Positions 7,745 to 47,491 of a stretch of DNA of 64,000 nucleotides are shown here, piece after piece; within the stretch, counting starts at the first letter, position 1, and each line of letters starts with the position of its first letter. The notes beneath the pieces are model-generated. The model was not told the DNA's origin, did not search any database, and worked only from the letters and a program-made list of their open reading frames with translations. The DNA is from Escherichia phage vB_EcoM_Skers: the sequence record MW748999.1, one strand, 5' to 3'. A program made the translations under genes and the position numbers.

Positions 7745-10700
7745 ATGGCAGATTTTTCTCAACATTTCAAGGCCACATTTGGCTTTGATGCTGGTAATGA
7801 AAAGGTCGTCAATGTAGCATTGGCTGATAAGAATGTCAACACCGATGCGGTCAACGTTGAATTTTTCAATTACCATAATGGTATTACTCAGTATGACACA
7901 ACTCGCGGTTATGATCAATACGGAACTACAATCTATCAAAACCGCCCGTATTATGCAAAAGAAGATATCGCAAAACCAGCAGGTGACTTTGACCCGACTA
8001 AATGGCAAGCACTGCGCACGGACCCACGTTGGGATTATGTTGCAGCAACTTCCGGCGATACTCCTTTAAAGTCCGGTGATTATATCGCAGCGGACTGTCA
8101 GTTTGCAAACTTGACATTCTCAATGCCTACTAATCCGGCAGAGGGCGACACTATAACAGTAAAAGATATCGGTGGCAAGTGCGGTGTTAATGAGTTATCG
8201 TTCCTTGCGGCTGGTCATGAGTTCTATCATAACGGTGTGGTAAACAACCGCAAATGGTATTGTACTACCCCTTATGCAATGAACTACTTCATTTTTGCTC
8301 GCAATCGCTGGCACGTTTACCAGACGGGAACGGAGCCACGCGGGGTATATGCACAGCCATCTATTGATCCGATCCAGATGCAAAACGGTGATCAGGTATT
8401 CCGCCGTAGTTCTTTGGGTAACATTGTTTTGATGCTTCCTAAGTTTGCTAATAACGGTGATATGATCCAGACTACCGATCTTGACGGATTGACTGCAACC
8501 AACCATGTTACGGTAAAAGTGCATGAAGGTGCGCAAGAACAATCGATCGGTACTTTCGGGGTAAAAGAAATTGTTGGTAAGCGTAGCGGTCATGGTGTAT
8601 TCATCTTTGACAAACCGGAAAACTTATGGCGTTTGTGGGATGGCGATCAGTCTGTTCGCTTGAATCCTATCATTAGTGATACTCGCTTATCCCCTAATAG
8701 CTATGTTGCTGTATTTGGTGATCGTGATGTTACCTTGACTTTACCGACCAATGTCGAGCCGGGTGATCGTATTCAAGTTTCTATGCAGTATATGCACGGA
8801 AACCAGACTTGCCGAATCATTACCTCAGAAGAGGATACAAAAATCCTTATGCAGAAAAACATGGTTCAGTTTCCTAAGCGTAGCGAGTACCCATTCAATG
8901 GGACCGATACATGGACGGGAGTGTCTGAATTGTCTTTCAACGCTGCAAATGATTATGTACCTTATCTGGAGTTCTCTTATTCAGAAGGTGATGATGGTAA
9001 GAAATACTGGTTGGTGGCACATGCTCACCCGATTGTAGAACGAGTAGATCCGACTCGTAAAGATCGTGTTGGTGTAATTGCACTGGCTACCCAGGATGAA
9101 ACAAACAAAAACCATGAAGATAATCCTAGCGACGAAGTTGCGGTGACTCCAAAGGTTCTGGCTAACAAAACAGCCAACGAAACTCGACGCGGTATTGCTC
9201 GCATTGCAACTCAAGCGGAAACGCATCAAGATACTGGTTCCAGCTTCCTGGATGATGTTATCGTTACACCTAAAAAGTTAAATGACTGTGTTGCTACCGA
9301 AGACCGTCGTGGTGTGATGGAAATTGCAACTCAACATGAAACAAACGAAGGTTTAGACGATACCCGCGCAATCACTCCTAAGAAGTTAGAAGAACGTCGC
9401 GCGTCCGAGGATCTTGCTGGTATCGCTGAAATTGTTCAGGTAGGCGGTAATGCTGCCGCTCTAAGGGGTGAAGCTGGTACAGGGATCTATAATATCAATG
9501 ACCATGCTAAAATTGTTACACCGCAAAACATCAACGAAGTTAAGGCGACCGAAACTTCCCGTGGTGTTGGGTATCTGGCGACGGATGAGGAAGTTCAAGG
9601 GGCGACTGAATCAACCCCACAAGATGCATTGCTTATCACTACTCGCACGTTAACCAAGCGTACTGCCACCGAATCCCGTACTGGTATCGCTGAAATTGCT
9701 ACGCAGGAAGAAACTAACTTAGGCCAAAGTGACAACCATATCATCACGCCTAAAAAGCTACATACTCGCCGCGCAACGGAAACTTTACACGGTTTAGCAG
9801 AAATTGCAACTCAGTCTGAATTTGACGCAGGTCGTGACGATGCTCGCATTTCTACCCCATTGAAGATTAAAACCTTCTTTGAGAATGCACAGCGTTTGAA
9901 AGTAGATCCGACTCAGGGGCTTAACCTTACTGGTGATTTGTGGCAAGGTATCATGATCAGCGGTCTTGATGCAACCGAAGATACAAAAGGTGTCGCGAAA
10001 GTTGCAACTACTCAGCTTACAGACGCAGGAGAAGATGACGCTACGATCATTACTCCTAAAAAGCTGCAAGGCAAAAAGGCCACCGAAGGTAAAGAAGGTA
10101 TTATCCGAGTTGGTACTCAAGACGAAACCGTAGCTGGTACTATGGACAATGTAGCAATTTCTCCGAAGAACTTCAAATATGTTGTTCAGACAGAGGATAC
10201 ATGGAAAGCAACCGAATCGCGTCGCGGATTCCTGAAAGTAGCAACACAAGAAAACTGTTTTGTTGGTGACAATCTGCAAGGTTCTACTCAAGATCTTGAT
10301 AACTATCAGCATGACGGGATTGCGGTAACTCCGAAAGGATTAAACTACGCACTTGCTAATTTCTTACCTAAGATGGCAACCGCTCAGAATAGTTTGAAAT
10401 TGGGTAACGTAGAGGCCGCTAAATGGGCGCGTAGAGACATTGACCAGACCATAGAGAGCAATTACACGTTTAATAAAAACGTTAACGTGAAGGGCGATTT
10501 AGAGTGCTTAAAATCAGGTTCCTTTGAAACTCTGTCTGTGACTAAGAACTCTACTGATGATCCGAGTAATGGTCATCTGGTGTTGGGTGAGCGTGGAGTT
10601 GACGGTCACACCGGAATTACTCTGCATGGCACAACCGCATCGGAAGGCATGGAAAACTCATGGTCTATTATCGTTGGTGGCACTGGAACATCTCAAGTTG

Positions 10701-17638: not shown

Positions 17639-18418
17639 ATGGCAGTAGTTGGTGTTCCTGGTTGGATTGGAAGTTCAGCCGCAAATGAAACAGGACAACG
17701 TTGGATGAGTCAAGCGGCTGGACAATTAAGATTGGGTGTTCCCTGCTGGATGAGTCAATTTGCAGGTCGCTCGCGAGAAATTATTCATACTGTAGGAGCA
17801 AACCACAATTTTAATGGCCAGTGGTTCCGTGATAGATGCTTTGAAGCTGGCGGTGCACCTATTGTATTCAATATTGTCGGTGATATCGTTTCTTATTCTA
17901 AAGATGTACCACTTTTCTTTATGTATGGAGATACACCTAATGAATATGTGGTTCTTAATATTCATGGCGGAGTTCATATGTGGGGACGAGGTGGTAACGG
18001 TACTGTAAACGGAAACCCGGGCACAAATGGCGGCGATGTAATCCAAAATGATATCGGCGGAAGACTTCGTATTTGGAACTATGGCGTTATTGCATCAGGC
18101 GGCGGCGGTGGTGGTGCAGTGTCATTACAGAATAGCTGGGCGCCAAATGCTACAGCAGGTGGCGGTGGTGGTAGACCATTTGGCATCGGCGGAGGCGGCG
18201 TTAATTGGCCGGGTGGTAATGCTAGTTATGACGCACCGGGCGGAGCCGGTTACACTTCCCAATTCGGCGGAGGCAATGGCGGTGATGCTGGAGGTTGGGG
18301 TGGAGATGGATGGGGTAATCACTTATCTAGATCCGGCGGTGGTGCTCCAGGTAGAGCGGTATTCGGTTCTTCACCATCATGGGGTGCTGTAGGGACAATT
18401 TATGGATCTTACATTTAA
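17639..18418 (+). CDS. 38: T2-type receptor-binding adhesin gp38 with glycine-rich motifs
   Basis: N-terminus [50 protein letters not shown] closely matches the T2 gp38 N-terminus; C-terminal half has poly-Gly blocks separated by variable segments. Confidence 0.85.
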
Positions 18419-18751: not shown

Positions 18752-19408
18752 ATGCAAGTTTCTGAAAAAGAGAAAGACTTTGCTATCTCAAATGTCCTGC
18801 GCGCTATTTTCACAACTAAAAGCACGGAGTTGCTCGTACTTCGTGTTTTTGCTGCCGTCGTGTTGTCCATATTAGCATTTGTCGTTTATAGTAAAAACGA
18901 GTTATTTGCCTTGTATAAAGAGACTCGTTATGAGACTTATGCTCACGTTCTCCAGGTAGAGAAAGACCGCAATTTTGATAATGCAGCACAGGAGCAGTTA
19001 CAGATAGTTCATGTGTCGGCTGATGCCGATTTTTCTGCTGTTTTTAGTTTTCGTCCGAAAAACCTAAACTATTTTGTTGATTTGGTGGCATATGAAGGAA
19101 AGCTACCACATACAATCGATGAAAAGAATTTAGGCGGATTCCCTATCAATAAAACGAGTGAAGAATATCGTAGGCATCTTTTAGGTAAATCATATTTTAC
19201 CGATAAAGATTTCCAGTATATTCCATCGAGGGAGAAAAAATTAGAGAATATCGATATAGGGTTTATGTATTCTTGTCCTATATTCAATCTCGATAATGTC
19301 TATTCTGGTAGTATTGCCATTGCATGGAAGAATAAACCAGATATTGACATTGAGAATTTAGATACTCTTTGTAATCAATCTGCCAGAATCCTCGGAAGGA
19401 TTAGATAA
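18752..19408 (+). CDS. t: holin t
   Basis: 218 aa, same as T4 holin; matches by recall LQIVHVSADADFSAVFSFRPKNLNYFVDLVAYEGKLP, FMYSCPIFNLDNVYSG, CNQSARILGR. Confidence 0.9.
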   Translation: MQVSEKEKDFAISNVLRAIFTTKSTELLVLRVFAAVVLSILAFVVYSKNELFALYKETRYETYAHVLQVEKDRNFDNAAQEQLQIVHVSADADFSAVFSFRPKNLNYFVDLVAYEGKLPHTIDEKNLGGFPINKTSEEYRRHLLGKSYFTDKDFQYIPSREKKLENIDIGFMYSCPIFNLDNVYSGSIAIAWKNKPDIDIENLDTLCNQSARILGRIR

Positions 19409-20746: not shown

Positions 20747-20938
20747 TCACTTATCGTTAAGAAGTTCTAAAACTTTCTGTCGTACTTTGTCAATATTAGT
20801 TGATTCAAAAACTGTACGGTATCCCCAGCTTTGACCGTATGAGCGGTTGCAATCTCCATATCCCCATTGTTCAACCTGATAGTATTCAAGGAATGGATGC
20901 TGCCGAACTATGATACCATCGCGATTAAAAATTACCAT
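20747..20938 (-). CDS. hypothetical small protein (63 aa)
   Basis: ORF track; tight packing. Confidence 0.45.
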   Translation of the reverse strand: MVIFNRDGIIVRQHPFLEYYQVEQWGYGDCNRSYGQSWGYRTVFESTNIDKVRQKVLELLNDK

Positions 20939-20961
20939 AATATAATCCTCACGTCAACAAC

Positions 20962-21249
20962 TTATTTTCGGTTGTGGTCACGATATGTTTTAAAATATCC
21001 CTCGTACCACGGTAAAACATCTGGATTTTTACCACTATACAGACCTTTAACCATCATGTCAATAAGACCGTCCGGTGTTTGATAATTACCAGCTTTTATA
21101 AGCTCTCTGATTAAAATTTCCCTGTATATGTCTTTCGGATCTTCGTAATCAACTTGTATCGTTGTTGTGGTCTCATTCAATTTGGTTTCTGGAGTATCTT
21201 GCATCGCCTTCCACCAATCTTTTGTGATCTTCATGTTATTGAATTGCAT
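20962..21249 (-). CDS. hypothetical protein (95 aa)
   Basis: ORF track; tight packing. Confidence 0.5.
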   Translation of the reverse strand: MQFNNMKITKDWWKAMQDTPETKLNETTTTIQVDYEDPKDIYREILIRELIKAGNYQTPDGLIDMMVKGLYSGKNPDVLPWYEGYFKTYRDHNRK

Positions 21250-21260
21250 AATTTAACCTC

Positions 21261-22019
21261 TTACTTGCAAACGTATTGATCTACATCAATTGCGCCACCG
21301 AATGTAGGATGACGTTTTTCAAATCGAATAGTTCCGTCGTTTGGTTCGAAAACGGAGTATTCATATAGATCTTTCTTACCAACATTCTTATAAAACCCGC
21401 CTTTAGTCATAACGGTTTCTTGTACGTTTGCTTTGTGTACGTTGTATTCATCAATGTATACAAAATCAACCATCTTCCCATTTTTAATGGTTACTTTAAG
21501 ATCCCCTGGCTGGTTTCCATATTTTGCATACAGTGGAGCCTCTTTAATTTTGGTGGAAATTCCATCTTTCATACTCCACTCATAACGAACGGTGCATTGA
21601 TAGGTAAAAGTTTCGTCCTTCGGTTCTTCCACCACTTTTTCTTCCTGTTTCGGTTGTTCTTCGTCAACCTTTGCAGAAGTCTCTGAATCGCTTTCTGACG
21701 CGGTTTCTTCTTTAGGTAATACATTCATCAAGTTTTGGATTTGAGCGTTGTATACAGCCTCCAGTGGCTGAATCTGCCCGATATTGATCATTGTATCACG
21801 AACAGTTTTATTCCAGTTACGTTGTTCTTGTTTCAGAGATGGATCAATCTTAACAGCCTTAACATATACTTCATGAAGTTTCGAATCCAGTGCGGAAATT
21901 GACTCATTAGCACAAATAAACTTCTCTGATTTGGTAGTGGCTTTAGCGCAATCGAAGGACGCAGCATTAGCACCGAATGCAGTAGCAGAAAGAACGATAG
22001 CAGCGATAATGTTTTTCAT
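21261..22019 (-). CDS. exported protein with DUF1311 (LprI/lysozyme-inhibitor-like) N-terminal domain
   Basis: Signal peptide MKNIIAAIVLSATAFGANA; then SFDCAKATTKSEKFICANESISALDSKLHEVY...EQRNWNKTVRD matching the DUF1311 pattern. Confidence 0.6.
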   Translation of the reverse strand: MKNIIAAIVLSATAFGANAASFDCAKATTKSEKFICANESISALDSKLHEVYVKAVKIDPSLKQEQRNWNKTVRDTMINIGQIQPLEAVYNAQIQNLMNVLPKEETASESDSETSAKVDEEQPKQEEKVVEEPKDETFTYQCTVRYEWSMKDGISTKIKEAPLYAKYGNQPGDLKVTIKNGKMVDFVYIDEYNVHKANVQETVMTKGGFYKNVGKKDLYEYSVFEPNDGTIRFEKRHPTFGGAIDVDQYVCK

Positions 22020-22053
22020 AATATATTCCTCAGTGTTTTGTCTTGATGGGAGT

Positions 22054-22082
22054 ATATTACTACTCCCTTAATCCGGTGTCAA
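22054..22082 (-). promoter_or_regulatory. PeSL-like early promoter
   Basis: Minus strand TTGACA-N17-TAATAT with palindrome GGGAGTA-GTAATA-TACTCCC spanning the -10. Confidence 0.55.
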
Positions 22083-22089
22083 CTACTTT

Positions 22090-22245
22090 TTAAATTTCTT
22101 CTACAGTAAAGTCTTCAATGTTGTTGTGCTCGGAGAACGTTGCCAAACCAGCATCCCATGCATCATCCTCAGAGAAGAATACACCGTAACGTTCATATCC
22201 CTTAGCGCCTTCAAATTTAACCATTAATTTGTGAGTATGTTTCAT
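22090..22245 (-). CDS. hypothetical small protein (51 aa)
   Basis: Track ORF 22090..22332 runs through the upstream promoter; start set at ATG 22245 (MKHTHKLM) with SD AAGGAG. Confidence 0.45.
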   Translation of the reverse strand: MKHTHKLMVKFEGAKGYERYGVFFSEDDAWDAGLATFSEHNNIEDFTVEEI

Positions 22246-22276
22246 TTTGATTCTCCTTCGTTGTCTTGATGAGTTT

Positions 22277-22305
22277 AGTATAGGGGATCGCCGATCCCCT
22301 GTCAA
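22277..22305 (-). promoter_or_regulatory. PeSL-like early promoter
   Basis: Minus strand TTGACA-GGGGATCGGCGATCCCC-TATACT; the 17-nt spacer is a perfect palindrome. Confidence 0.65.
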
Positions 22306-22319
22306 CCAGTTTTTAGAAA

Positions 22320-22580
22320 TTATTTTCGCCATTCACCGGAAACAATGAAGTTTGTAAAGTGATTGTGGTCCGTGATAATGTCATTAAGTACCATATGCGG
22401 ATATGCTTTAGTGTAATCACGTTTACGATCAGTCATCCAACCAACGAAAGTCGGTGCAAAGTACGGCACACCGTCAGATGATGCCATATTAAACCCTTTA
22501 TCAGCCATAAATGCAGCCGCCCTAAGATTTTTAATTGAAGTAGTGCGACTAATTTCAAAAACTTTATCAGTAAAATTCAT
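22320..22580 (-). CDS. hypothetical protein (86 aa)
   Basis: ORF track; ATGA-type overlap with the upstream ORF. Confidence 0.5.
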   Translation of the reverse strand: MNFTDKVFEISRTTSIKNLRAAAFMADKGFNMASSDGVPYFAPTFVGWMTDRKRDYTKAYPHMVLNDIITDHNHFTNFIVSGEWRK

Positions 22581-22792
22581 TTTAAGCCCCCCGCTCGTGC
22601 ATTAATACGCATTTTCTGAATAGCCATGATCTGGCTTACTGCTTCTTCTTTACGTTCTTGCGTGATAACGTGACCAGATTCCGCAAACTCTCCAGCAACT
22701 TCTTCTACGATCTCGCGAACTTGAGAACGTCCAAAGATGCGGTTTCCTTCGTAGCTCATAAACTCTGTTACTACTTGCTCGATAGATTTCAT
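22577..22792 (-). CDS. hypothetical protein (71 aa)
   Basis: ORF track; SD AAGGAG upstream. Confidence 0.5.
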   Translation of the reverse strand: MKSIEQVVTEFMSYEGNRIFGRSQVREIVEEVAGEFAESGHVITQERKEEAVSQIMAIQKMRINARAGGLK

Positions 22793-22821
22793 GTGATTCT
22801 CCTTTTGTTTGGTATGGGAGT

Positions 22822-22850
22822 ATGTTACTACTCCCTTATCTTTACGTCAA
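22822..22850 (-). promoter_or_regulatory. PeSL-like early promoter
   Basis: Minus strand TTGACG-N17-TAACAT overlapping palindrome GGGAGTA-TGTTAC-TACTCCC. Confidence 0.5.
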
Positions 22851-22857
22851 CTAGTTT

Positions 22858-23100
22858 TTAGAAATTTTTCGCTTCTTCTTCGGTCATCATCACCGCGCAT
22901 TCGTGCATAACTTTGAAAACCGGGTCAATCATATCGAATGCTTCGCGAGACAATTTACGAGAAGCGATTTTGATTGCTTCAACGTCTTCTACTACAGGAA
23001 CAAAAACAGTTTTCAGTTCATCGAGAACGGCAGCTTCTTTTTCATTCAGGAAGATTCCAGCGTCGTACAATGCAACTTCGATAACATTAACTTTAACCAT
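22858..23100 (-). CDS. hypothetical protein (80 aa)
   Basis: Track ORF 22858..23163 starts with TTG inside the promoter; start set at ATG 23100 (MVKVNVIEV) with SD GGAGG. Confidence 0.5.
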   Translation of the reverse strand: MVKVNVIEVALYDAGIFLNEKEAAVLDELKTVFVPVVEDVEAIKIASRKLSREAFDMIDPVFKVMHECAVMMTEEEAKNF

Positions 23101-23134
23101 TTTTATTTCCTCCAGTTCGTTTCGGTATGGGAGT

Positions 23135-23163
23135 ATAATACTACCGATGACCTTTGGCGTCAA
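23135..23163 (-). promoter_or_regulatory. early promoter TTGACG-N17-TATTAT
   Basis: Minus strand TTGACGCCAAAGGTCATCGGTAGTATTAT. Confidence 0.5.
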
Positions 23164-23365
23164 CTAGTTTTTTGTTATTTTCGTGAAATTTTTTCGTCGC
23201 CTCATGTGCTTTTCGCTGGGCTTCTAGTTGTGCTTTCTGGCGTGCTGCCTCTTGTGAAGCCATAACGGAAGCATTTGCAGCAGTTACAGCCGCGACCATC
23301 GCTGCGGTATTAGCATTTACCGTACATGCACTAGCCAGCAAAGCAATCGCAATCATTTTCTTCAT
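23141..23365 (-). CDS. small exported protein (signal peptide or possible lipoprotein)
   Basis: N-terminus MKKMIAIALLASACTVNANT (hydrophobic core plus LASAC); Ala/Gln/Lys-rich mature part. Confidence 0.5.
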   Translation of the reverse strand: MKKMIAIALLASACTVNANTAAMVAAVTAANASVMASQEAARQKAQLEAQRKAHEATKKFHENNKKLVDAKGHR

Positions 23366-23601
23366 AGTTTCCCCTTTAGGTTATCTTCGACCTTCACCCA
23401 TTCCGCGTATTCTTGCGCGGCTACTTTCGGATTTAGTCCGTCTTCGTACATTGCTTCAAGTAATTCTTCGTCGGTGGGCTTATACCCTAGATAAGCCTCC
23501 ACCTGATTTTTCCAAATTTTATACCAGTTCATATTATCACCAATCAAGAGCGCGTGTCTCTGCGTCTTCCCATGCTTGATCCATAACAGCCTTGAAAACA
23601 T
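23362..23601 (-). CDS. hypothetical protein (79 aa)
   Basis: ORF track; ATGA overlap with the downstream gene. Confidence 0.45.
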   Translation of the reverse strand: MFSRLLWIKHGKTQRHALLIGDNMNWYKIWKNQVEAYLGYKPTDEELLEAMYEDGLNPKVAAQEYAEWVKVEDNLKGKL

Positions 23602-23809
23602 ATTCTAGAGTATCATCTTTAGAGAATCCGAAGACTTTAGACGGAATATCTTCAATTGCTACTCCCGCAACTTCTGCATTACGCGCTTGGCAATAATGCA
23701 ACTCTAAGTTATCGAGATAGCGACCGCCTAATTTCTCCATATCATCCCAACATTTCCAGTAACCTACTTTATCTGCAATTGCCAACACTTTGCTGTTTTC
23801 GTTGTTCAT
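23537..23809 (-). CDS. hypothetical protein (90 aa)
   Basis: Track ORF 23537..23902 runs through promoter and terminator; start set at ATG 23809 (MNNENSK) with SD AAGGAG. Confidence 0.5.
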   Translation of the reverse strand: MNNENSKVLAIADKVGYWKCWDDMEKLGGRYLDNLELHYCQARNAEVAGVAIEDIPSKVFGFSKDDTLEYVFKAVMDQAWEDAETRALDW

Positions 23810-23840: not shown

Positions 23841-23869
23841 ATTATGCAATGCTGGATTATGGAAGTCAA
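23841..23869 (-). promoter_or_regulatory. early promoter TTGACT-N17-CATAAT
   Basis: Minus strand TTGACTTCCATAATCCAGCATTGCATAAT. Confidence 0.5.
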
Positions 23870-23881
23870 ACAACTTTTCAA

Positions 23882-23911
23882 ATAAAAAAAAGCCGACCAC
23901 AAGGATCGGCT
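23882..23911 (-). terminator. rho-independent terminator
   Basis: Minus-strand RNA AAGCCGAUCCUUGUGGUCGGCU followed by UUUUUUUUAUU. Confidence 0.75.
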
Positions 23912-23921
23912 TAATAGTCAG

Positions 23922-24310: not shown

Positions 24311-24520
24311 TCAGTCATACTTTCCCTCCAAAAATTCTTTCATCAAATAGTCTATCGTTGCTCTGTGTTCTGGTGTGTTTGTTATCTCTGCTAACTTGTT
24401 CAGAGATTCAATAGTGATCCGGTTGGCTTCTTCCATAGTCTCAACGACCATCGGTACAATCTTTTTATTGTTGTACACGAAAGCCACATAACCGCCTTCT
24501 GGATATTCTTTCATAATCAA
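24311..24520 (-). CDS. hypothetical protein (69 aa)
   Basis: ORF track; ATGA overlap with the gene 52 stop. Confidence 0.5.
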   Translation of the reverse strand: MIMKEYPEGGYVAFVYNNKKIVPMVVETMEEANRITIESLNKLAEITNTPEHRATIDYLMKEFLEGKYD

Positions 24521-25878
24521 CCCTTCTTAAGTTCTTTAAGATCTTTCTTATATTCCTTCATTGCGGTCGTCTTTGTCCAATACTCATATTCACTATGATG
24601 TTTATCGGCATCTTTGACCAGTCGATCATACTCTTCTTGAGTAACGCTATACAATGGCATAGAAACGAGCTTATCGGCATATGGGCGAAGTTTTTCATGT
24701 TCATTGATGGATTGCATTACCTCGGCCTTTTTCTTGCCCTGTAGCTCGATTTCGCCCTTAATTACGCGGTCGATAAATTCGGCTTTAGCCATTGCATAAT
24801 TGTATGCTTCCAGCGTTTCCGCTTGCATCAATTCAATGCGTTTATCGACATAGCCTAATCGGATTTCGACGAATCGACGGATCAGATCGCTCGCTTTCTC
24901 GAATACTTCTACTAAACCACGTTCGTTAACTACTACGATATTCTGGGCTACTAACTGCGTTAGTTTAAAATCCTTCATGATTTGCTCATGTCGAGCGGAT
25001 TCATCTTCGCTTTTGAAATAATCGCGTTTCAGTGTTACCTCAAATCTGAATCCGTCCTTAGAGCAACGGTCATTATACGATACAATCAGATCTTTTTCTT
25101 CCAGTGCATCCAGTACCGCTACATATTCTTCACGGTCGAACTTATAAGGAACTTCTGATATTGTCAGTTTAGTCTTGCCGTTTAGTTCATATGTACCCTC
25201 AAGAATCACACCATCGCGATCATCTCGCGGGATAACTTTACCCGTGAATTTCGGGAATTGAACACTAGGTTCTTTATCCAGTTTTCCGGCAAGTGCTAGC
25301 TCTGTGCATTCAATAAGGCTTTCCAATGAATGCGGTAAAATGTCAGTTTTATACCCTGTAGCAATACCACTAATACCATTAGCCAATACCATTGGCACAA
25401 CTGGCAAGTAGAACGCTGGCGGGATGTGTTCCAGATCTTCGTGCTTAGGTGCGCAATTCATATCTTTATAGATTTTAAAGAAGTTTTCATGCACACGAGC
25501 AAAGATATAACGTGCCGCACCTGCTTTCTGGACTAAACGCGATCCGAAGTTACCTTGACCGTCAAGCAGTGGAGTATTATTGCTCCATGTATTCGCCATA
25601 AGTGATCCGGCTTCTACGGCATTAGTTTCCCCGTGGTGATAACCCAACTCAGCAACACCAGATCCAATATCTGCCATCTTACGGAATTTCTTACGGTCGC
25701 CTTTACTCTTTTGAAGTGCGCACTCCATAACAAAGCGTTGTACTGGTTTAAGCCCATCTACCAATTGAGGAATCCCGCGTTCCTCGGCAGAATAGATCGC
25801 ATATTCCTTAGCTTCATTATGTACAATGCTTTCAAGGCTGCGGTAAGTAACTGATTTATTCATCTTCACCTCATACAC
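24517..25878 (-). CDS. 52: DNA topoisomerase II medium subunit gp52 (GyrA-like)
   Basis: GyrA-type motifs LVDGLKPVQRF, DGQGNFGS, AARYIFARV; strong match to T4 gp52 by recall. Confidence 0.9.
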   Translation of the reverse strand: MYEVKMNKSVTYRSLESIVHNEAKEYAIYSAEERGIPQLVDGLKPVQRFVMECALQKSKGDRKKFRKMADIGSGVAELGYHHGETNAVEAGSLMANTWSNNTPLLDGQGNFGSRLVQKAGAARYIFARVHENFFKIYKDMNCAPKHEDLEHIPPAFYLPVVPMVLANGISGIATGYKTDILPHSLESLIECTELALAGKLDKEPSVQFPKFTGKVIPRDDRDGVILEGTYELNGKTKLTISEVPYKFDREEYVAVLDALEEKDLIVSYNDRCSKDGFRFEVTLKRDYFKSEDESARHEQIMKDFKLTQLVAQNIVVVNERGLVEVFEKASDLIRRFVEIRLGYVDKRIELMQAETLEAYNYAMAKAEFIDRVIKGEIELQGKKKAEVMQSINEHEKLRPYADKLVSMPLYSVTQEEYDRLVKDADKHHSEYEYWTKTTAMKEYKKDLKELKKG

Positions 25879-40080: not shown

Positions 40081-40284
40081 TTATAGCTCAAATTTCATGA
40101 AAGTTCCTACACTTTCATTTTCATTCTCTCCGTTTTCATCTAAGCCAAATTTGTAGACACTACCATCTGGCGATGTGTAAGAGAATACACGAAAACGGCC
40201 TACCGAATCAAGTTCTGTAAATTCATATTCTTTTCCGGCTTCAAAAAGTGCATATGTGCTTTTAAGACATTTCATCGTAATCAT
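40081..40284 (-). CDS. hypothetical small protein (67 aa)
   Basis: ORF track; ATGA overlap with the upstream micro-ORF. Confidence 0.45.
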   Translation of the reverse strand: MITMKCLKSTYALFEAGKEYEFTELDSVGRFRVFSYTSPDGSVYKFGLDENGENENESVGTFMKFEL

Positions 40285-40424
40285 TTAAGCGCCACCGACA
40301 ACAGAATGAGAACTACACCAACATACATTGTGATCTCGGATAACTTTTCTGTTTTTGTTTTGTGTCCAGATAATCCGAAAACAACAACACCGATAATAGC
40401 GGACAGCAAGCCAACGATAAACAT
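40281..40424 (-). CDS. predicted 47-aa two-transmembrane-helix micro-protein
   Basis: MFIVGLLSAIIGVVVFGLSGHKTKTEKLSEITMYVGVVLILLSVALK; stop overlaps the next start (ATGA); not in ORF track; SD weak. Confidence 0.35.
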   Translation of the reverse strand: MFIVGLLSAIIGVVVFGLSGHKTKTEKLSEITMYVGVVLILLSVALK

Positions 40425-40431
40425 GATGATA

Positions 40432-40608
40432 CTAAGCACCGTCTTTCTCCTTTTTGCGTTTTTCTTTACCCGCTACACTAGGTCCACGATTGGTAATAGA
40501 TCCGCTCGTTTCACCTGCTGCGATCTTCTCAGGATTGCCGCCAGCATCGCCAGCGGTCATATCTTCTTTGAGTTTATTTTCTTCAACAAACTGTTTAAAG
40601 CCAATCAT
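40432..40608 (-). CDS. predicted 58-aa Lys/Gly-rich micro-protein
   Basis: ATGA overlap with the stop of 40605..40982; not in ORF track. Confidence 0.35.
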   Translation of the reverse strand: MIGFKQFVEENKLKEDMTAGDAGGNPEKIAAGETSGSITNRGPSVAGKEKRKKEKDGA

Positions 40609-40982
40609 AGAATAATCTCTTTCAGTAAGTCAACAATCTGGTCTTTCGTCAGTTTATCCTGATTCTCTACAATCTTGATAACACAAGCGTTAACATCTTT
40701 TCGAGTAACGCGGGAGATCGTTTTAATACGATGAAACGGTTCGTAGAAATATACTGCTTCATTATAGAGCGCAGCAATTTTTCGACGCATTTGATCTTTA
40801 TCCGACAAGAAAACAAGTGCTGTTTTATGACCTTCTACACCCGCCACGTTATATAGTTCAGCAACACCCCAGCGACCTTCCGGTTCAATCATTCCGGCGT
40901 GTTTACCGTCGATAAAAATAAGAATATCTCCGTTGAATGCGGTTTTGAATGCTACATCTTCCGGCGTAATCATATTTTTCAT
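40605..40982 (-). CDS. hypothetical protein (125 aa)
   Basis: ORF track. Confidence 0.5.
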   Translation of the reverse strand: MKNMITPEDVAFKTAFNGDILIFIDGKHAGMIEPEGRWGVAELYNVAGVEGHKTALVFLSDKDQMRRKIAALYNEAVYFYEPFHRIKTISRVTRKDVNACVIKIVENQDKLTKDQIVDLLKEIIL

Positions 40983-41012
40983 AATATAGTCTCCTTAGAG
41001 TTTCATTATAGA

Positions 41013-41648
41013 TCAATCGAATGTAGAAAGCAAATGTTTTGTTTCTTTCAGTTGTCGTTCAAGATCTTTGCGTTTCTCTTTAAGTTGCATTTTAGCATTA
41101 TTTCGCTGTTTTTCAACATCTTTATCAATGCTCTTATTCCAGTTATCAATATCAGAATAAGTTGGCATACCCAATTCTAGACCTAATGCGGTTGGATACA
41201 GGGTAACAGTCCATAAACCGCTAATCTTCTTAAATAGGTCGGGGTGTAGTGTACTATCTACATCTTCCGGTGTCAACTCTTTTTCTTCTTTCAGTGGTGG
41301 GATCTCGTCATATGGTTCCAGTGCATTTACTTTAATATCAGATACCTCATCAAAGAATCCGCGTACATCCGCAGGAAATACACAAGCAATTTCCCAACCG
41401 TGATCACGCAGAGAAGTAATATTTTTCACTCCCCCACCATGTGTGATGATTGATGTGACATTGCCATCAAGGTCCACCGAATTTACGAGAAATGGCTTAT
41501 CGTCTGTCAGATCATTATAAAACTGTGCTTCGGCTGTAGTCATCTCCAGAAACAGATCTCGGATCGGACGACCATCAGGTGCGTTACCTTCCTTGAGAGT
41601 ATAAAAGCGACTTACGATCCATTTTGGCGGTAAAGCATTAGCGATCAT
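41013..41648 (-). CDS. hypothetical protein (211 aa)
   Basis: ORF track. Confidence 0.5.
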   Translation of the reverse strand: MIANALPPKWIVSRFYTLKEGNAPDGRPIRDLFLEMTTAEAQFYNDLTDDKPFLVNSVDLDGNVTSIITHGGGVKNITSLRDHGWEIACVFPADVRGFFDEVSDIKVNALEPYDEIPPLKEEKELTPEDVDSTLHPDLFKKISGLWTVTLYPTALGLELGMPTYSDIDNWNKSIDKDVEKQRNNAKMQLKEKRKDLERQLKETKHLLSTFD

Positions 41649-44823: not shown

Positions 44824-47491
44824 ACAGGTCAGTCAGAGAAGCAACTTTTTCATATTGCAGCTTTGCAGCCGTGGTAATGTTCTCCAGTGGTTTGACGAAA
44901 GTCTTATTAAACAACAAAGGCCAGTCCAACCACTTCAACACCTCTGATTCAATTTCTGGCGGAATACGAGTACCGGACAACCAACCAAAACAGATTTCTC
45001 CAAACGGATTTCGATCTTTAAGCGGTACAATCATAACCTTCTCGCCTTCACGAATCGGATCTAGTCCGAATTTTCGAGCATTACGATTATAACACAATAC
45101 ACTCTTAACCGCATACGGACAACCCTTAATCGGATACCCGTTTGAATCGCTGTATTTCTGTAGGTTGTTTGCAGATGATACCGCAGCAACCTCAAGATAG
45201 TCAAGTTTTCTAAACTCTTGCTCAAAAATACCGTAGTATTCCTGCAATGACTCTTCACCTTCCTGCAACATACGGCGAATACATTCTTTCAGTGATTTCT
45301 GACATGCTTTAGGGGTGGAGCTACGTTGCGTTTCCAAGCCCATGATTTTTAGCTTAGGCTCAGCAAAGCGCGTTCCTTCCATATCCCAAACATTAAGAGC
45401 ATAACGCTTTTTGCCAGTCCAGAATCCACCGATACCCGCAGATTTCAACGGAGGACCAGCAATTGCCTCACGGTCCATAAACATCAAGTGCTCATAGTTG
45501 TTCATGTACTCGCATAACTCGCGATATCCCTTGTCGATAATCGGTTCCATTCTATGTTTACCGAAATTATCAAGGAAGTCAACAAGTTTTTCGGTATCGT
45601 CGAAACGATCTTCCCCGCCAACCTTATCAACAACATTGTTAACCAGCACATAAACGGAGTCAGTATCACAATAACGAACATATGCAAAATCAGTTGTTCC
45701 GCAAAGCTCGTTTAAGTATTCGTTAATCTTGCGCTCAATCCACTGAATTGCAAGCTGACCGAACAAGGTGATCGCACTAGCGTTGCGGAGATCATAAAAA
45801 CGGAATTTAGGATTCCCCAACGCACCATAAAGGGAGTTGATCAAAACTTTTCGAGAAAGCTGGTTTGTATTGCACAAGATCGACTCGTCTTTACATTCTT
45901 CCAGCAATTTCTCTAAGGCATCTTTACTTAATTCAGAAAGCATCGATTTAAACGCTTCATCGAAGTCGTGACGTACTTCAACGCTATAGCTAATGGTTCC
46001 CCCATAAACATGATTTTCATCGTGTAGAATCGCTTTACAGAGTTCAGCATTGCGATCACATGCCAACATCATGTTTTTGTACTGCTTACGCTGATCGAAT
46101 ACCTTTTTAATCTCAATAGGTACGATACCGTGAATATCTTTTCTATACATCCATCCGTTAGGCGAGCAAGAATACTCATCACTCGGACGTGGTGCAGTTT
46201 TATTGATATACTCGTGCATCGGTGCAGCATCAAAAGATCCGGCGATTGTTTCCGGCGAAATGTTAACCTGTCGAATAATAGATGGATACAGACTTGTTAG
46301 GTCAAAGCTCATCATCCAACGGTAAGCATTCGGCACAGGTTCTTTTACAAATGCGCCTGGATACGTCTGCTTAGGATGTATCTTATTTTCCGGTACTACT
46401 TTACCCTCAGCTTTCAGAGATCCGAAGATAATAGCATCCCATACTTTCATCGGGTTATAAACATGGTTAAATTTAATCTTTGCATAGAAACATAGGCTAT
46501 ACACCAGATCGATAAATCCGCGCTTTTTATCAATCGCCAGCACACGATCAACGTCGCCGATGTTATAATCGATGTAAAGTTGATGGTTGTCATCACGCAA
46601 TTTCTTTAACGGACCATCATAATCAACCTTACCGATTCCGGTCTCATATTCAGCAACATAATCTAATGCATATGTTGGTTGAGTCGTAAAGCTAAACTTC
46701 TTGTACAGGTCAATATAATCAAGGCTTTCGATCCCCATGATCGTAAATGCTTCACGCTCGTTGCCAAAATCATCCTGTGAGATTCGGGATTTAATCTTAC
46801 CGCACGGGCTTAGACGGTTTGCCGTTCGACTTCCAAACTTATTCCCGATACGTTTAATGATATATGGAATATCGAATGTTTCTGTGTTCCAGCCAGTGAA
46901 ACCAACGGGTCGGTTTTCCTCAAAGAATCGGATGTATTCTAACAGCAATTCATCTTCTGTGTCATAGACGTTATAAACAACGCGCTCTACAATATCAGGT
47001 CGAAGAATAGACTTGCTAGATTCCCAGATTTCACCGTTTTTTCCTTTCAAATCAAATACAAAGAAACGATCATGTACGGAATCATAATGCGTAATTGCAT
47101 CGATAGGATATTTCGCTTCTTCTGGTTTAGGAAATTCTGGGGCAGTGACCTCAATATCAACCCATGCTACACGGATTTTATTTCGGTCATATCGAATCTC
47201 GCCTTTATATGTATCGGACAGATAGGAGATGATAAAATCATCCATCCCTAGTGCCTCCTGCCCCATTTCTCCCATCTTTTTACGCCATTTGTTGGCCTCG
47301 TTCATAGATGGGAATTTTTTAGCAATGCAAGGCTTGCCGTAGATATCTTTATAATTCGTAACCATACCAGGCGCGGCATGATGAAATAAAGTTGGCATAT
47401 ATTCAACGTAACGCTCTTGTTCTTGTCCAGCATCATCAATATAACGCTCGTAGATCTTATCACCCACTCGCTCACATGACAGAAAATACAT
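44813..47491 (-). CDS. 43: DNA polymerase gp43 (family B)
   Basis: Strong match to T4 gp43 by recall (ERYIDD, YDRNKIRVAWVDIEVT, FDLTSLYPSIIRQVNISPETI, NSLYGALGN, YCDTDSVYV); start at ATG 47491 with SD AAGGAG (track starts at GTG 47521). Confidence 0.9.
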   Translation of the reverse strand: MYFLSCERVGDKIYERYIDDAGQEQERYVEYMPTLFHHAAPGMVTNYKDIYGKPCIAKKFPSMNEANKWRKKMGEMGQEALGMDDFIISYLSDTYKGEIRYDRNKIRVAWVDIEVTAPEFPKPEEAKYPIDAITHYDSVHDRFFVFDLKGKNGEIWESSKSILRPDIVERVVYNVYDTEDELLLEYIRFFEENRPVGFTGWNTETFDIPYIIKRIGNKFGSRTANRLSPCGKIKSRISQDDFGNEREAFTIMGIESLDYIDLYKKFSFTTQPTYALDYVAEYETGIGKVDYDGPLKKLRDDNHQLYIDYNIGDVDRVLAIDKKRGFIDLVYSLCFYAKIKFNHVYNPMKVWDAIIFGSLKAEGKVVPENKIHPKQTYPGAFVKEPVPNAYRWMMSFDLTSLYPSIIRQVNISPETIAGSFDAAPMHEYINKTAPRPSDEYSCSPNGWMYRKDIHGIVPIEIKKVFDQRKQYKNMMLACDRNAELCKAILHDENHVYGGTISYSVEVRHDFDEAFKSMLSELSKDALEKLLEECKDESILCNTNQLSRKVLINSLYGALGNPKFRFYDLRNASAITLFGQLAIQWIERKINEYLNELCGTTDFAYVRYCDTDSVYVLVNNVVDKVGGEDRFDDTEKLVDFLDNFGKHRMEPIIDKGYRELCEYMNNYEHLMFMDREAIAGPPLKSAGIGGFWTGKKRYALNVWDMEGTRFAEPKLKIMGLETQRSSTPKACQKSLKECIRRMLQEGEESLQEYYGIFEQEFRKLDYLEVAAVSSANNLQKYSDSNGYPIKGCPYAVKSVLCYNRNARKFGLDPIREGEKVMIVPLKDRNPFGEICFGWLSGTRIPPEIESEVLKWLDWPLLFNKTFVKPLENITTAAKLQYEKVASLTDLFDI

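Follow-up and report, generated by a model that had tools for sequence, protein, structure and literature searches.

The window, i.e. the complete stretch of 64,000 nucleotides from the RB49-like Escherichia phage vB_EcoM_Skers (MW748999.1), contains, on the strand opposite to holin t, a cluster of small ORFs between t and gene 52. Two exported proteins had been proposed for this cluster from the sequence alone (referred to as the original prediction), one encoded at 21261-22019 (ORF A) and one at 23141-23365 (ORF B). Both ORFs were found at these positions, each on the minus strand, and the ORF A peptide sequence quoted in that prediction is correct. The region comprises the following features:

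18752-19408, plus strand: holin t (Pfam Phage_holin_T, E 4.9e-61)
20962..21249, minus strand: downstream gene, homolog of RB49ORF259c (phrog_15915)
21261-22019, minus strand: ORF A, 252 aa, corresponding to RB49ORF260c
21264..21608, minus strand: C-terminal 8-stranded β-barrel cassette of type 2, ORF A aa 138-252
21609..21713, minus strand: acidic, Lys/Pro/Ser-rich linker of low complexity, ORF A aa 103-137
21714..21962, minus strand: DUF1311/LprI-family domain (Pfam match), nearly invariant, ORF A aa 20-102
21963..22019, minus strand: signal peptide predicted heuristically by hydropathy and the -3/-1 rule, ORF A aa 1-19 (MKNIIAAIVLSATAFGANA/AS, the slash marking the cleavage site)
22027..22031, minus strand: Shine-Dalgarno sequence GAGGA, 7 nt before the ATG of ORF A, read directly from the sequence
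22048..22067, minus strand: stem-loop GGGAGUA(6 nt)UACUCCC, overlapping the -10 element
22054..22082, minus strand: σ70-type early promoter of ORF A (TTGACA, 17 nt spacer, TAATAT)
23141..23365, minus strand: ORF B, 74 aa, with the hydrophobic N-terminus MKKMIAIALLASAC…, an Ala-rich stretch and then a charged helix

RB49ORF260c is annotated as ‘hypothetical’, and a DUF1311 match with an E-value of 0.2 was tabulated for it already in 2006 (PMC1524935). Searches with PADLOC and NCBIfam gave no significant match, and the neighbors of ORF A in the phage are phage ORFans. The N-terminus starts with MK, followed by the hydrophobic segment NIIAAIVLSATAFGA and by ANA/AS. This n/h/c-region pattern, assigned heuristically, predicts a Sec signal of the classical SPase I type with the site …ANA/ASFDC, and no lipobox Cys was found in the signal region by sequence pattern. 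The …A/ASFDC junction is kept throughout the DUF1311 family. The cleavable signal peptide of the original prediction is thus borne out at the level of prediction by the SPase I-type pattern, hydropathy and the -3/-1 rule. Cysteine pairs are present in the N-domain and in the barrel alike; ORF A is probably exported to the periplasm, where its disulfides would form.

The promoter annotation given independently by the GEC-3S authors sits at the position homologous to the early promoter of ORF A, and no late promoter TATAAATA was found near ORF A. The stem-loop has a 7-bp stem, a folding energy of -11.9 kcal/mol and a z-score of -2.83. Together, promoter and stem-loop seem to resemble the PeSL cassettes of RB49-type hyperplastic regions, a concept described in PMC2839356 together with the typical GGGG…CCCC tract; the ORF A element differs from a typical PeSL in that this tract is missing and the stem shares bases with the -10 element.

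For ORF B, a signal peptide or a possible lipobox (LLASAC) had been suggested. The hydrophobic N-terminus stands, whereas the lipobox is non-canonical: the strict pattern [LVI][ASTVI][GAS]C does not match, position -3 being Ala, only a permissive PROSITE-like pattern fits, and there are alternative SPase I sites, e.g. VNA/NT. ORF B is kept in about 27-30 Krischvirus records with ω of 0.11-0.27. Its stretch is indel-variable, and neither the RB49 reference nor ELT3 has the ORF. It belongs to no Pfam or PHROG family and no homologs were found beyond Krischvirus-like contigs. By these sequence comparisons, ORF B is a real, constrained ORFan restricted to Krischviruses.

Domain architecture of ORF A

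The DUF1311 fold suggested in the original prediction agrees with the Pfam search. The profile PF07007 (LprI) matched ORF A with 26.2 bits (E 1.1e-5), i.e. above the Pfam gathering score of 22, whereby the match covers aa 24-76 and only positions 1-71 of the 106 profile positions. An LprI match was obtained for 21/21 family members. A profile of the N-domain retrieved 470 LprI-family proteins with E-values down to 3e-29 and a query coverage of up to 100%; nearly all are short proteins of the PF07007/YecT type, most of them with a PF07007 match or named LprI family or YecT. Between homologs, the N-domain is at least 83% identical, and its ω of 0.02-0.09 corresponds to strong purifying selection. 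Typical DUF1311 members have four conserved cysteines, which form two disulfides (PMC7933661). The first pair (C23 and C35) is present and invariant in the N-domain; the second is missing from the Krischvirus and prophage proteins, but kept in some relatives. The full-length AF2 model has four helices in the N-domain, but the pLDDT of 35-57 is poor because the alignment is nearly invariant. A profile search against the PDB gave a single weak match (6ar7, E 0.037).

The linker varies between 23 and 47 aa in the homologs, has a pLDDT below 50 (AF2) and contains the recombination breakpoint zone. It is followed by the C-terminal 115 aa, which AF2 models confidently (pLDDT 90) as a barrel of 8 strands, bracketed by the invariant C142 (β1) and C251 (β8). 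At least seven types of this barrel cassette exist, which are 17-52% identical to each other; the cassette is exchanged as a whole among related phages and E. coli prophages. On the DNA level, the types share no similarity between 21280 and 21611, whereas the flanks are about 95% identical. When remote homologs of the barrel were searched for with HMMER among 1.84 billion representatives, only the family itself and tandem-repeat noise were retrieved. The barrel is a sequence orphan confined to the Krischvirus/prophage family. Its nearest Foldseek neighbors include barrels of surface lipoproteins which bind host proteins, the structural matches being generic. Barrel and cassette polymorphism, which the original prediction overlooked, are the most informative feature of the protein. 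An invariant module combined with one that is swapped as a cassette is characteristic of an arms-race interface.

Membership of the barrel in the MliC family of lysozyme inhibitors was considered and rejected at sequence level by Pfam and by the PDB profile search. MliC (PF09864) did not match any of the 21 family members at E ≤ 10, and the MliC motifs SxSGAxY and YxxxTKG are missing or unconserved in the alignment (A3). An MliC-like structure of the barrel is not demonstrable from the models. Inhibitors of the MliC/PliC/ACP class can be without the MliC motifs, as is the case for ACP (PMC5507604).

Distribution in Krischviruses and E. coli prophages

The ORF A gene is present in 100% of the sequenced Krischviruses. 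It was further found in 26/5,426 E. coli genomes as the last gene of a lambdoid prophage. There it occupies a ‘moron’ position proximal to the attachment site, its neighbors being the terminase genes and the attachment site, and it lies far from the prophage lysis genes. Some of the prophage copies keep a remnant of the RB49ORF259c homolog, namely its Shine-Dalgarno sequence and the first ~25 codons. Judged from the sequence, the prophage copies derive from a Krischvirus-like segment. No effector or toxin adjoins the prophage copies, and no effector or T6SS gene was found next to any copy of ORF A, whether in a phage or in a prophage. The presence in every Krischvirus and the moron position in prophages argue for a function which is useful to infected cells and to lysogens. 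The E. coli carriers include O55:H7 and ETEC strains.

Candidate functions of ORF A

Among the functions considered, ORF A most likely neutralizes an incoming protein which damages the cell wall, acting as an orphan ‘immunity-type’ binder; we hold this reading tentatively. ORF A would be produced as a soluble periplasmic protein from its own early promoter at the start of infection, and the same protein would be made by lysogens carrying the prophage copy. A flexible acidic tether would join the invariant helical DUF1311/LprI domain to a disulfide-closed, exchangeable barrel. The target would reach the periplasm from outside, as a peptidoglycan hydrolase on the tail of superinfecting phage or as an effector of bacterial origin (T6SS or bacteriocin). 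The conserved domain may provide the common binding or inhibition of a conserved partner, and the barrel may confer specificity toward a polymorphic partner, so that infected cells and lysogens would retain an intact envelope. We infer that ORF A acts as an inhibitor, and what its target would be, from the predicted export signal, the paired cysteines, the PF07007 membership and the early promoter; from the periplasmic, cell-wall-related roles of DUF1311 proteins in enterobacteria; from the modeled barrel, which is built generally like the MliC/PliC/ACP inhibitors with 8 strands and a predicted β1-β8 disulfide; and from the cassette polymorphism, the universality in Krischviruses, the prophage moron position and the lack of spackle. 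The lack of an MliC match or MliC motifs, the lack of an adjacent effector and a barrel which tracks neither gp5 nor the fiber tip argue against it. So do the DUF1311-only protein ScwA, which gives no lysozyme protection, and the tested immunity protein Etsi4 (both described below): Etsi4 reaches just 18.7 bits with LprI, a weak match, and shows no pairwise resemblance to the domain of the phage protein, so that function can be transferred at superfamily level only.

The original prediction had proposed a non-homologous analog of spackle. Taken strictly, ORF A would inhibit the gp5 lysozyme domain of superinfecting Krischviruses or T-even phages and thereby cause superinfection exclusion as well as resistance to lysis from without. 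Prophages would have captured the gene as a defense against such phages. We consider this unlikely, although several parts of it fit. Krischvirus gp5 carries a tail lysozyme, and no spackle homolog was found in the ORFeome of RB49 or the window; the spackle niche is therefore open in Krischviruses. An early promoter and a (predicted) periplasmic signal are shared with T4 sp, DUF1311/LprI membership holds, the N-domain and gp5 are alike in being invariant, and the prophage copies come from a Krischvirus-like segment. However, the barrel polymorphism is unrelated to gp5, whose identity among Krischviruses is 98.8% or more whatever the barrel type. In the Klebsiella phage PWKp16 (Marfavirus), spackle and an LprI-domain protein occur together; the two are hence not simple alternatives. 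DUF1311 by itself is not known to inhibit a lysozyme. The name ‘lysozyme inhibitor’ goes back to M. tuberculosis LprI, in which an MliC barrel is present as well and is credited with the inhibition of lysozyme, and the Salmonella protein ScwA, consisting of DUF1311 only, gives no protection against lysozyme (PMC7933661). Annotations as ‘lysozyme inhibitor LprI family protein’ should be taken with caution as evidence of function.

Homology to spackle was excluded for ORF A, ORF B and any other ORF of RB49 or the window: phrog_1586 matched neither of these two, nor any ORF of the syntenic 61-41 slot (PWKp16 control, 6e-25), and the best hit of the spackle HMM among all 6-frame ORFs (E 0.012) came from a signal peptide only. 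A co-variation of barrel type with gp5 was rejected given the near-identity of gp5 across types. Co-variation with the tail-fiber tip module was absent in a single comparison, in which the window phage and RB49 have an identical barrel and different g37/g38 tip modules.

It is somewhat less probable still that ORF A is an orphan immunity protein against bacterial toxins acting in the periplasm (T6SS peptidoglycan hydrolases; colicin M/pesticin-type bacteriocins), one polymorphic effector being neutralized per barrel type. The DUF1311 protein Etsi4 of E. coli O157:H7 was tested as immunity to the T6SS effector Etse4 and rescues its periplasmic toxicity in E. coli (PMC12981562). Pantoea T6SS islands contain arrays of orphan LprI-domain genes, predicted as immunities, beside lysozyme-like effectors (PMC9796082); such arrays occur next to WHIX effectors as well. 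Cassette polymorphism is typical of immunity/effector systems, and the moron position fits lysogenic conversion. With no effector or T6SS gene near any copy, however, ORF A would be an orphan at best, and the search of 1.84 billion representatives placed its barrel in this phage and prophage family alone, not in any immunity locus of a bacterium. A virulent phage, whose latent period is short, would draw little evident benefit from such immunity, yet the gene is universal in Krischviruses.

Similarly improbable is a modulator of host cell-wall enzymes (ScwA-like, acting e.g. on MltD) or an accessory of lysis timing or of t/rI lysis inhibition. The periplasmic, DsbA-dependent ScwA controls MltD levels and lyses cells when overproduced (PMC7933661), a conserved host target would agree with the extremely conserved N-domain, and the gene cluster adjoins holin t. 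Little weight can be given to this proximity in a hyperplastic ORFan region whose transcription converges with that of t, and the distance from the lysis genes in prophages speaks against such a role. Furthermore, at least seven exchangeable barrels would be unexplained while t, rI and gp5 stay conserved. Masking of a receptor from the periplasmic side (T5 Llp/Cor-like), by which a barrel bound to an outer-membrane receptor would block readsorption or superinfection, agrees with a predicted-exported, early and polymorphic protein and with the surface-lipoprotein barrels among the Foldseek neighbors, but is very improbable, as ORF A is by sequence pattern neither a lipoprotein nor membrane-anchored, the structural matches are generic, and barrel types, which should follow receptor specificity, are identical in two phages with different tip modules.

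The immunity-type binder could also be read more broadly, in that ORF A founds a new class of modular, polymorphic periplasmic phage ‘immunity’ proteins, which we regard as doubtful. Such proteins would combine an invariant DUF1311 handle with interchangeable barrels as ‘specificity heads’ and would circulate between virulent T4-type phages and prophages, each barrel type countering a different protein that attacks the envelope, be it part of a phage tail or of a bacterial weapon. If true, this would be a new superinfection-exclusion or anti-competitor system and a defense gene passed from a virulent phage to a prophage. For T4-type phages, few means of protecting the envelope of an occupied cell are known besides Imm and Spackle in T4. 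Being universal in the genus, early, predicted to be exported and composed of one frozen and one swapped module, ORF A is a concrete and easily testable candidate for envelope protection in Krischviruses. The prophage copies may affect the resistance of lysogens to phages or bacterial weapons, a point to consider when Krischviruses are used in phage therapy.

Comparison with known systems

T4 Spackle (gp61.3) and ORF A are both small early proteins of T4-type phages which are exported (for ORF A, by prediction); in sequence and architecture they are unrelated, mature Spackle being helical and about 75 aa long. Stand-alone DUF1311/LprI proteins (YecT-type, Etsi4) share with ORF A the signal peptide followed directly by the core (A)SFDC…E..IC…D..L..Y…QR.W. 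ORF A differs from them by the missing second cysteine pair and by the long acidic linker and orphan β-barrel added to DUF1311, whereas its nearest relatives are single-domain proteins of 76-159 aa; ORF A further has no adjacent effector. Proteins of phrog_4675, similar to ORF A in total length (232-250 aa), have the same signal peptide and DUF1311 N-domain, but differ in the C-terminal half, which bears no relation to the barrel of Krischviruses and gave no match to any known domain. They occur in Klebsiella Marfavirus, Aeromonas Ceceduovirus, Salmonella SSU5_101 and as lambdoid prophage copies, i.e. as accessory genes in virulent and temperate phages. M. tuberculosis LprI has its parts in the same order as ORF A, namely export signal, DUF1311 and 8-stranded β-barrel (PMC7933661), but is a lipoprotein, whereas ORF A has an SPase I-type site and no lipobox Cys. 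With the MliC/PliC/ACP class, the modeled ORF A barrel seems to have in common the small antiparallel fold of 8 strands and, by prediction, the β1-β8 disulfide.

Architecture and family of ORF A

ORF A is real at 21261-22019 on the minus strand (252 aa) and is orthologous to RB49ORF260c, with 99% identity. The original prediction had seen a signal peptide and a DUF1311/LprI-like domain in it, which was borne out, but had overlooked a C-terminal barrel domain. The protein consists of three parts:

aa 1-102: signal peptide and DUF1311 domain, almost invariant in all homologs
aa 103-137: linker, acidic, Lys/Pro/Ser-rich and of low complexity
aa 138-252: separate C-terminal domain, the barrel

Identity over aa 1-102 is at least 83% among homologs and mostly exceeds 95%. 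The n/h/c pattern at the N-terminus predicts a Sec-type signal peptide with an SPase I cut at MK-NIIAAIVLSATAFGA-ANA|AS; the signal region contains no Cys, and no further hydrophobic segment was found in the protein. Pfam LprI matches ORF A with 26.2 bits against a gathering score of 22 (E 1.1e-5; aa 24-76 aligned to profile positions 1-71 of 106), and a match was obtained for 21/21 homologs. A profile of the DUF1311 part (N-domain), built from diverse phage homologs and designated A5, retrieved 470 proteins with a best E of 3e-29. Nearly all are single-domain proteins of 76-159 aa of the PF07007/'LprI family'/YecT type, and they share the core '(A)SFDC.KA....E..IC…D..L..Y…QR.W'. These three results establish the N-domain as a member of DUF1311, with the reservation that the second conserved Cys pair of the family is missing. 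The assignment as such is already known: a sub-threshold match of RB49ORF260c (E 0.2) was tabulated in 2006 (PMC1524935), and some recent records name homologs 'LprI domain-containing' or 'lysozyme inhibitor LprI family protein'.

The linker varies from 23 to 47 aa across homologs and is disordered in the AlphaFold model. When an alignment of its variants was used to model the barrel by itself, the result was eight antiparallel strands and one short helix (pLDDT 90.3, pTM 0.82). C142 in the first strand and C251 in the last are both invariant and would form a disulfide closing the barrel in the periplasm. Foldseek against the PDB returned no match at E ≤ 1e-3, the MliC Pfam model did not match any barrel variant even at E ≤ 10, and MliC motifs are not conserved among the variants. 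An exhaustive HMMER search with the barrel profile against 1.84 billion cluster representatives found the family itself and tandem-repeat artefacts only. Given these negative searches and the confident eight-strand model, the barrel has a common fold but is an orphan at sequence level.

Genomic surroundings, expression signals and ORF B

The phage belongs to the genus Krischvirus (RB49-like, T4-type coliphages), and many Krischvirus genomes match its region 20900-23700 at 93-97% identity. Small minus-strand ORFs fill the interval between holin t and topoisomerase gene 52, and every one of their RB49 counterparts, RB49ORF253c-266c, is annotated 'hypothetical'. RB49-type genomes have hyperplastic, ORFan-rich parts, this region among them (Arbiol et al., PMC2839356). 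Features of the region:

18752-19408, plus strand: holin t (Pfam Phage_holin_T, E 4.9e-61)
22082-22054, minus strand: σ70-type promoter of ORF A (TTGACA, 17 nt, TAATAT)
24517-25878, minus strand: topoisomerase gene 52

A 7-bp stem-loop overlaps the -10 element of the ORF A promoter, and the Shine-Dalgarno sequence is GAGGA. In GEC-3S, a promoter was annotated at the same place by the authors of that genome. Since the promoter is of the σ70 type and no T4 late promoter (TATAAATA) was found in the ORF A region, early expression of ORF A is likely, judged from these motifs.

Near-consensus σ70 promoters (TTGACA, 17 nt spacer) occur in intergenic gaps of the cluster at 22054-22305, 22822-22850, 23135-23163 and 23841-23869, and a hairpin resembling a terminator at 23890-23912, all on the minus strand. 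Short promoter-region repeats have matches at several places in other Krischvirus loci. Promoters and repeats are compatible with the shuffling of PeSL (promoter/stem-loop) cassettes known from RB49 and Phi1. Upstream of holin t, directly between g37 and dc5/t, lies a gene for a T2-type gp38-like adhesin with Gly-rich repeats (17639-18418, plus strand). Its product is only 44% identical to RB49 gp38, whose gene is found at RB49 45367-46143, in a different part of that genome; homology to RB49 returns only from about 18425, which indicates an exchanged tail-fibre tip module.

ORF B (23141-23365, minus strand, 74 aa) is likewise a real gene and is constrained (ω 0.11-0.27, from small counts). 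Of the signal peptide or lipobox proposed for it, the hydrophobic N-terminus (MKKMIAIALLASAC) is present, but a strict lipobox is not, since Ala occupies position -3; SPase I-type sites lie downstream, e.g. VNA|NT. The gene occurs in about 27-30 Krischvirus records; the RB49 reference and ELT3 lack it because it lies in an indel-variable stretch. About 500 bp (22872-23375, with ORF B and ORF 22858-23163) are missing from these two and present in GEC-3S, FL04 and others, an insertion/deletion polymorphism inside the hyperplastic region. No Pfam or PHROG family matched ORF B, and relatives among 5.8 billion proteins were found on Krischvirus-like contigs only. Its signal region is similar to that of T4-type spackle (…FALSSCAAQPAMA), which accounts for a weak and meaningless spackle HMM match. 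Compared with sp of RB14 (L012:401-694), MKKMIAIALLASACTVNA and MKKIIFATIFALSSCAAQPAMA are alike, and their hydrophobic cores each contain a Cys. The likeness does not extend to the mature parts, which are unrelated; that of ORF B is an Ala/Gln/Lys-rich helix similar in size to Lpp. ORF B is an ordinary genus-restricted ORFan.

Barrel exchange and spread of ORF A

The ORF A gene is present in all Krischvirus genomes of the collection. At a typing threshold of 60% identity, at least seven barrel types in two deep groups were distinguished, with mutual identities of 27-45% for types 1-4, 35-52% for types 5-7 and at most 25% across the groups. Type 2, found in the window, has 44 records among sequenced phages (95.7-100% identity). 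Type 4 has 11 phage records, including Phi1, GEC-3S, MIZ2/3/6, ELT3, E26, PHB13 and AV108; UPWr_E1 has a different group-I type, and JSE a barrel of group II. Compared with GEC-3S and ELT3, the DNA is ~95% identical over 21612-22097 (promoter and N-terminal half), without detectable similarity over the barrel-coding 21280-21611, and similar again from the stop codon. Very strong purifying selection acts on the first 115 codons (ω 0.02-0.09 at dS 0.16-0.27). Dissimilarity limited to the barrel, next to a constrained N-terminus, shows that a module was replaced from a deeper pool, as opposed to fast point-mutational drift.

Chromosomal homologs were detected in 26 of 5,426 complete E. coli genomes. 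Their first 370-403 nt are 94-96% identical to the phage gene at the DNA level, similarity stops in the linker, and the barrels are of types 1, 3 and 6. In each of the three strains inspected, a lambdoid prophage sits in hicB and has the homolog as its last gene, flanked by the terminase genes and the attachment site, a position typical of morons. Neither a toxin nor an effector gene was found near these copies. In DEC5A and H2, the ORF A stop is followed by a Shine-Dalgarno sequence and ~25 codons of ORF259c, the Krischvirus gene downstream of ORF A, and then by a stop ('MQFNNMKITKDWW…' against 'MQFNSMKITQKWWDAMKANHQNDIN*'):

L005:9776-9856: ORF259c remnant after prophage ORF A, compared with window 21187-21265
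L004 ~9772-9850: ORF259c remnant after prophage ORF A, compared with the same window segment

The presence of this truncated T4-type neighbour gene in temperate prophages indicates that the segment reached them from a Krischvirus-like genome. The same N-domain and signal peptide, joined to unrelated and unassignable C-terminal halves, recur in more distant relatives (phrog_4675), which occur in Klebsiella Marfaviruses, Aeromonas Ceceduoviruses, the phage-plasmid SSU5 and other lambdoid prophages.

As far as searches show, the two-module architecture with an orphan barrel, the cassette polymorphism against a strongly constrained N-domain, the universality in Krischviruses and the evidence that the gene passed from a virulent phage into E. 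coli prophages are new.

Candidate roles of ORF A

Early expression, export, a frozen module joined to cartridge-like ones, universality in a virulent genus and moron capture by prophages are best read as signs of an immunity-type binder. ORF A may thus be an orphan immunity-type periplasmic binder against an incoming envelope-attacking protein, a reading we advance tentatively, as the most likely one though at somewhat less than even odds. The protein would be made early, exported and bind in the periplasm, neutralising an envelope-attacking protein from outside, such as the tail hydrolase of a superinfecting phage or a bacterial T6SS/bacteriocin effector. In the literature, enterobacterial DUF1311 proteins are tied to periplasmic, cell-wall-related protein-protein interactions, and LprI-domain genes beside lysozyme-like effectors are predicted orphan immunities (PMC9796082; PMC12135965). 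Function may be transferred to ORF A at the superfamily level only, because Etsi4 scores 18.7 bits against Pfam LprI, under the cut-off, and no pairwise similarity of Etsi4 to the phage N-domain was found.

The main alternative is a ScwA-like controller of a host enzyme or of lysis timing: Salmonella ScwA, periplasmic and with DUF1311 only, gives no lysozyme protection and instead acts on MltD, controlling its levels (PMC7933661). Within the immunity-type reading, a bacterial toxin (T6SS/bacteriocin effector) as target is listed as a separate sub-case, and so is the strict version of the original prediction, a lysozyme-inhibiting analog of T4 spackle. The latter agrees with the predicted export, the early-looking gene, an N-domain family named after a lysozyme inhibitor, and the presence of gp5 tail lysozyme without spackle in Krischviruses. 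No spackle is named in the RB49 annotation, and the spackle HMM detected none among all six-frame ORFs of the window and RB49. Unrelated ORFans occupy the 61-41 slot syntenic with the spackle site (T4 sp, 61.3), between genes 61 and 41, at 40605-41648 (minus strand; Dc1 and Dc2) and 40081-40608; these ORFans are Krischvirus-specific (phrog_16174, phrog_16187, phrog_9181, phrog_18360). However, the family name misleads as a clue to function, as M. tuberculosis LprI also has an MliC barrel, and it is this barrel that lysozyme inhibition is attributed to (PMC7933661); the phage barrel is not demonstrably MliC-like. If the barrel bound gp5, its type would be expected to vary with the gp5 allele, but gp5 identity is 98.8% or more among all Krischviruses regardless of barrel, and Klebsiella phage PWKp16 has spackle and an LprI-domain protein together. 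Nor is barrel type tied to the tail-fibre tip, since the window and RB49 have the same barrel with different g37/g38 modules.

On sequence grounds, ORF A is a well-defined candidate, cheap to test, for protecting the envelope or excluding superinfecting phages in a genus without spackle. The known lysozyme inhibitors MliC, PliC and ACP are small disulfide-closed 8-stranded barrels, ACP without the MliC/PliC motifs (PMC5507604), and the ORF A barrel would be alike in general build, with eight modelled strands and a predicted disulfide closure.
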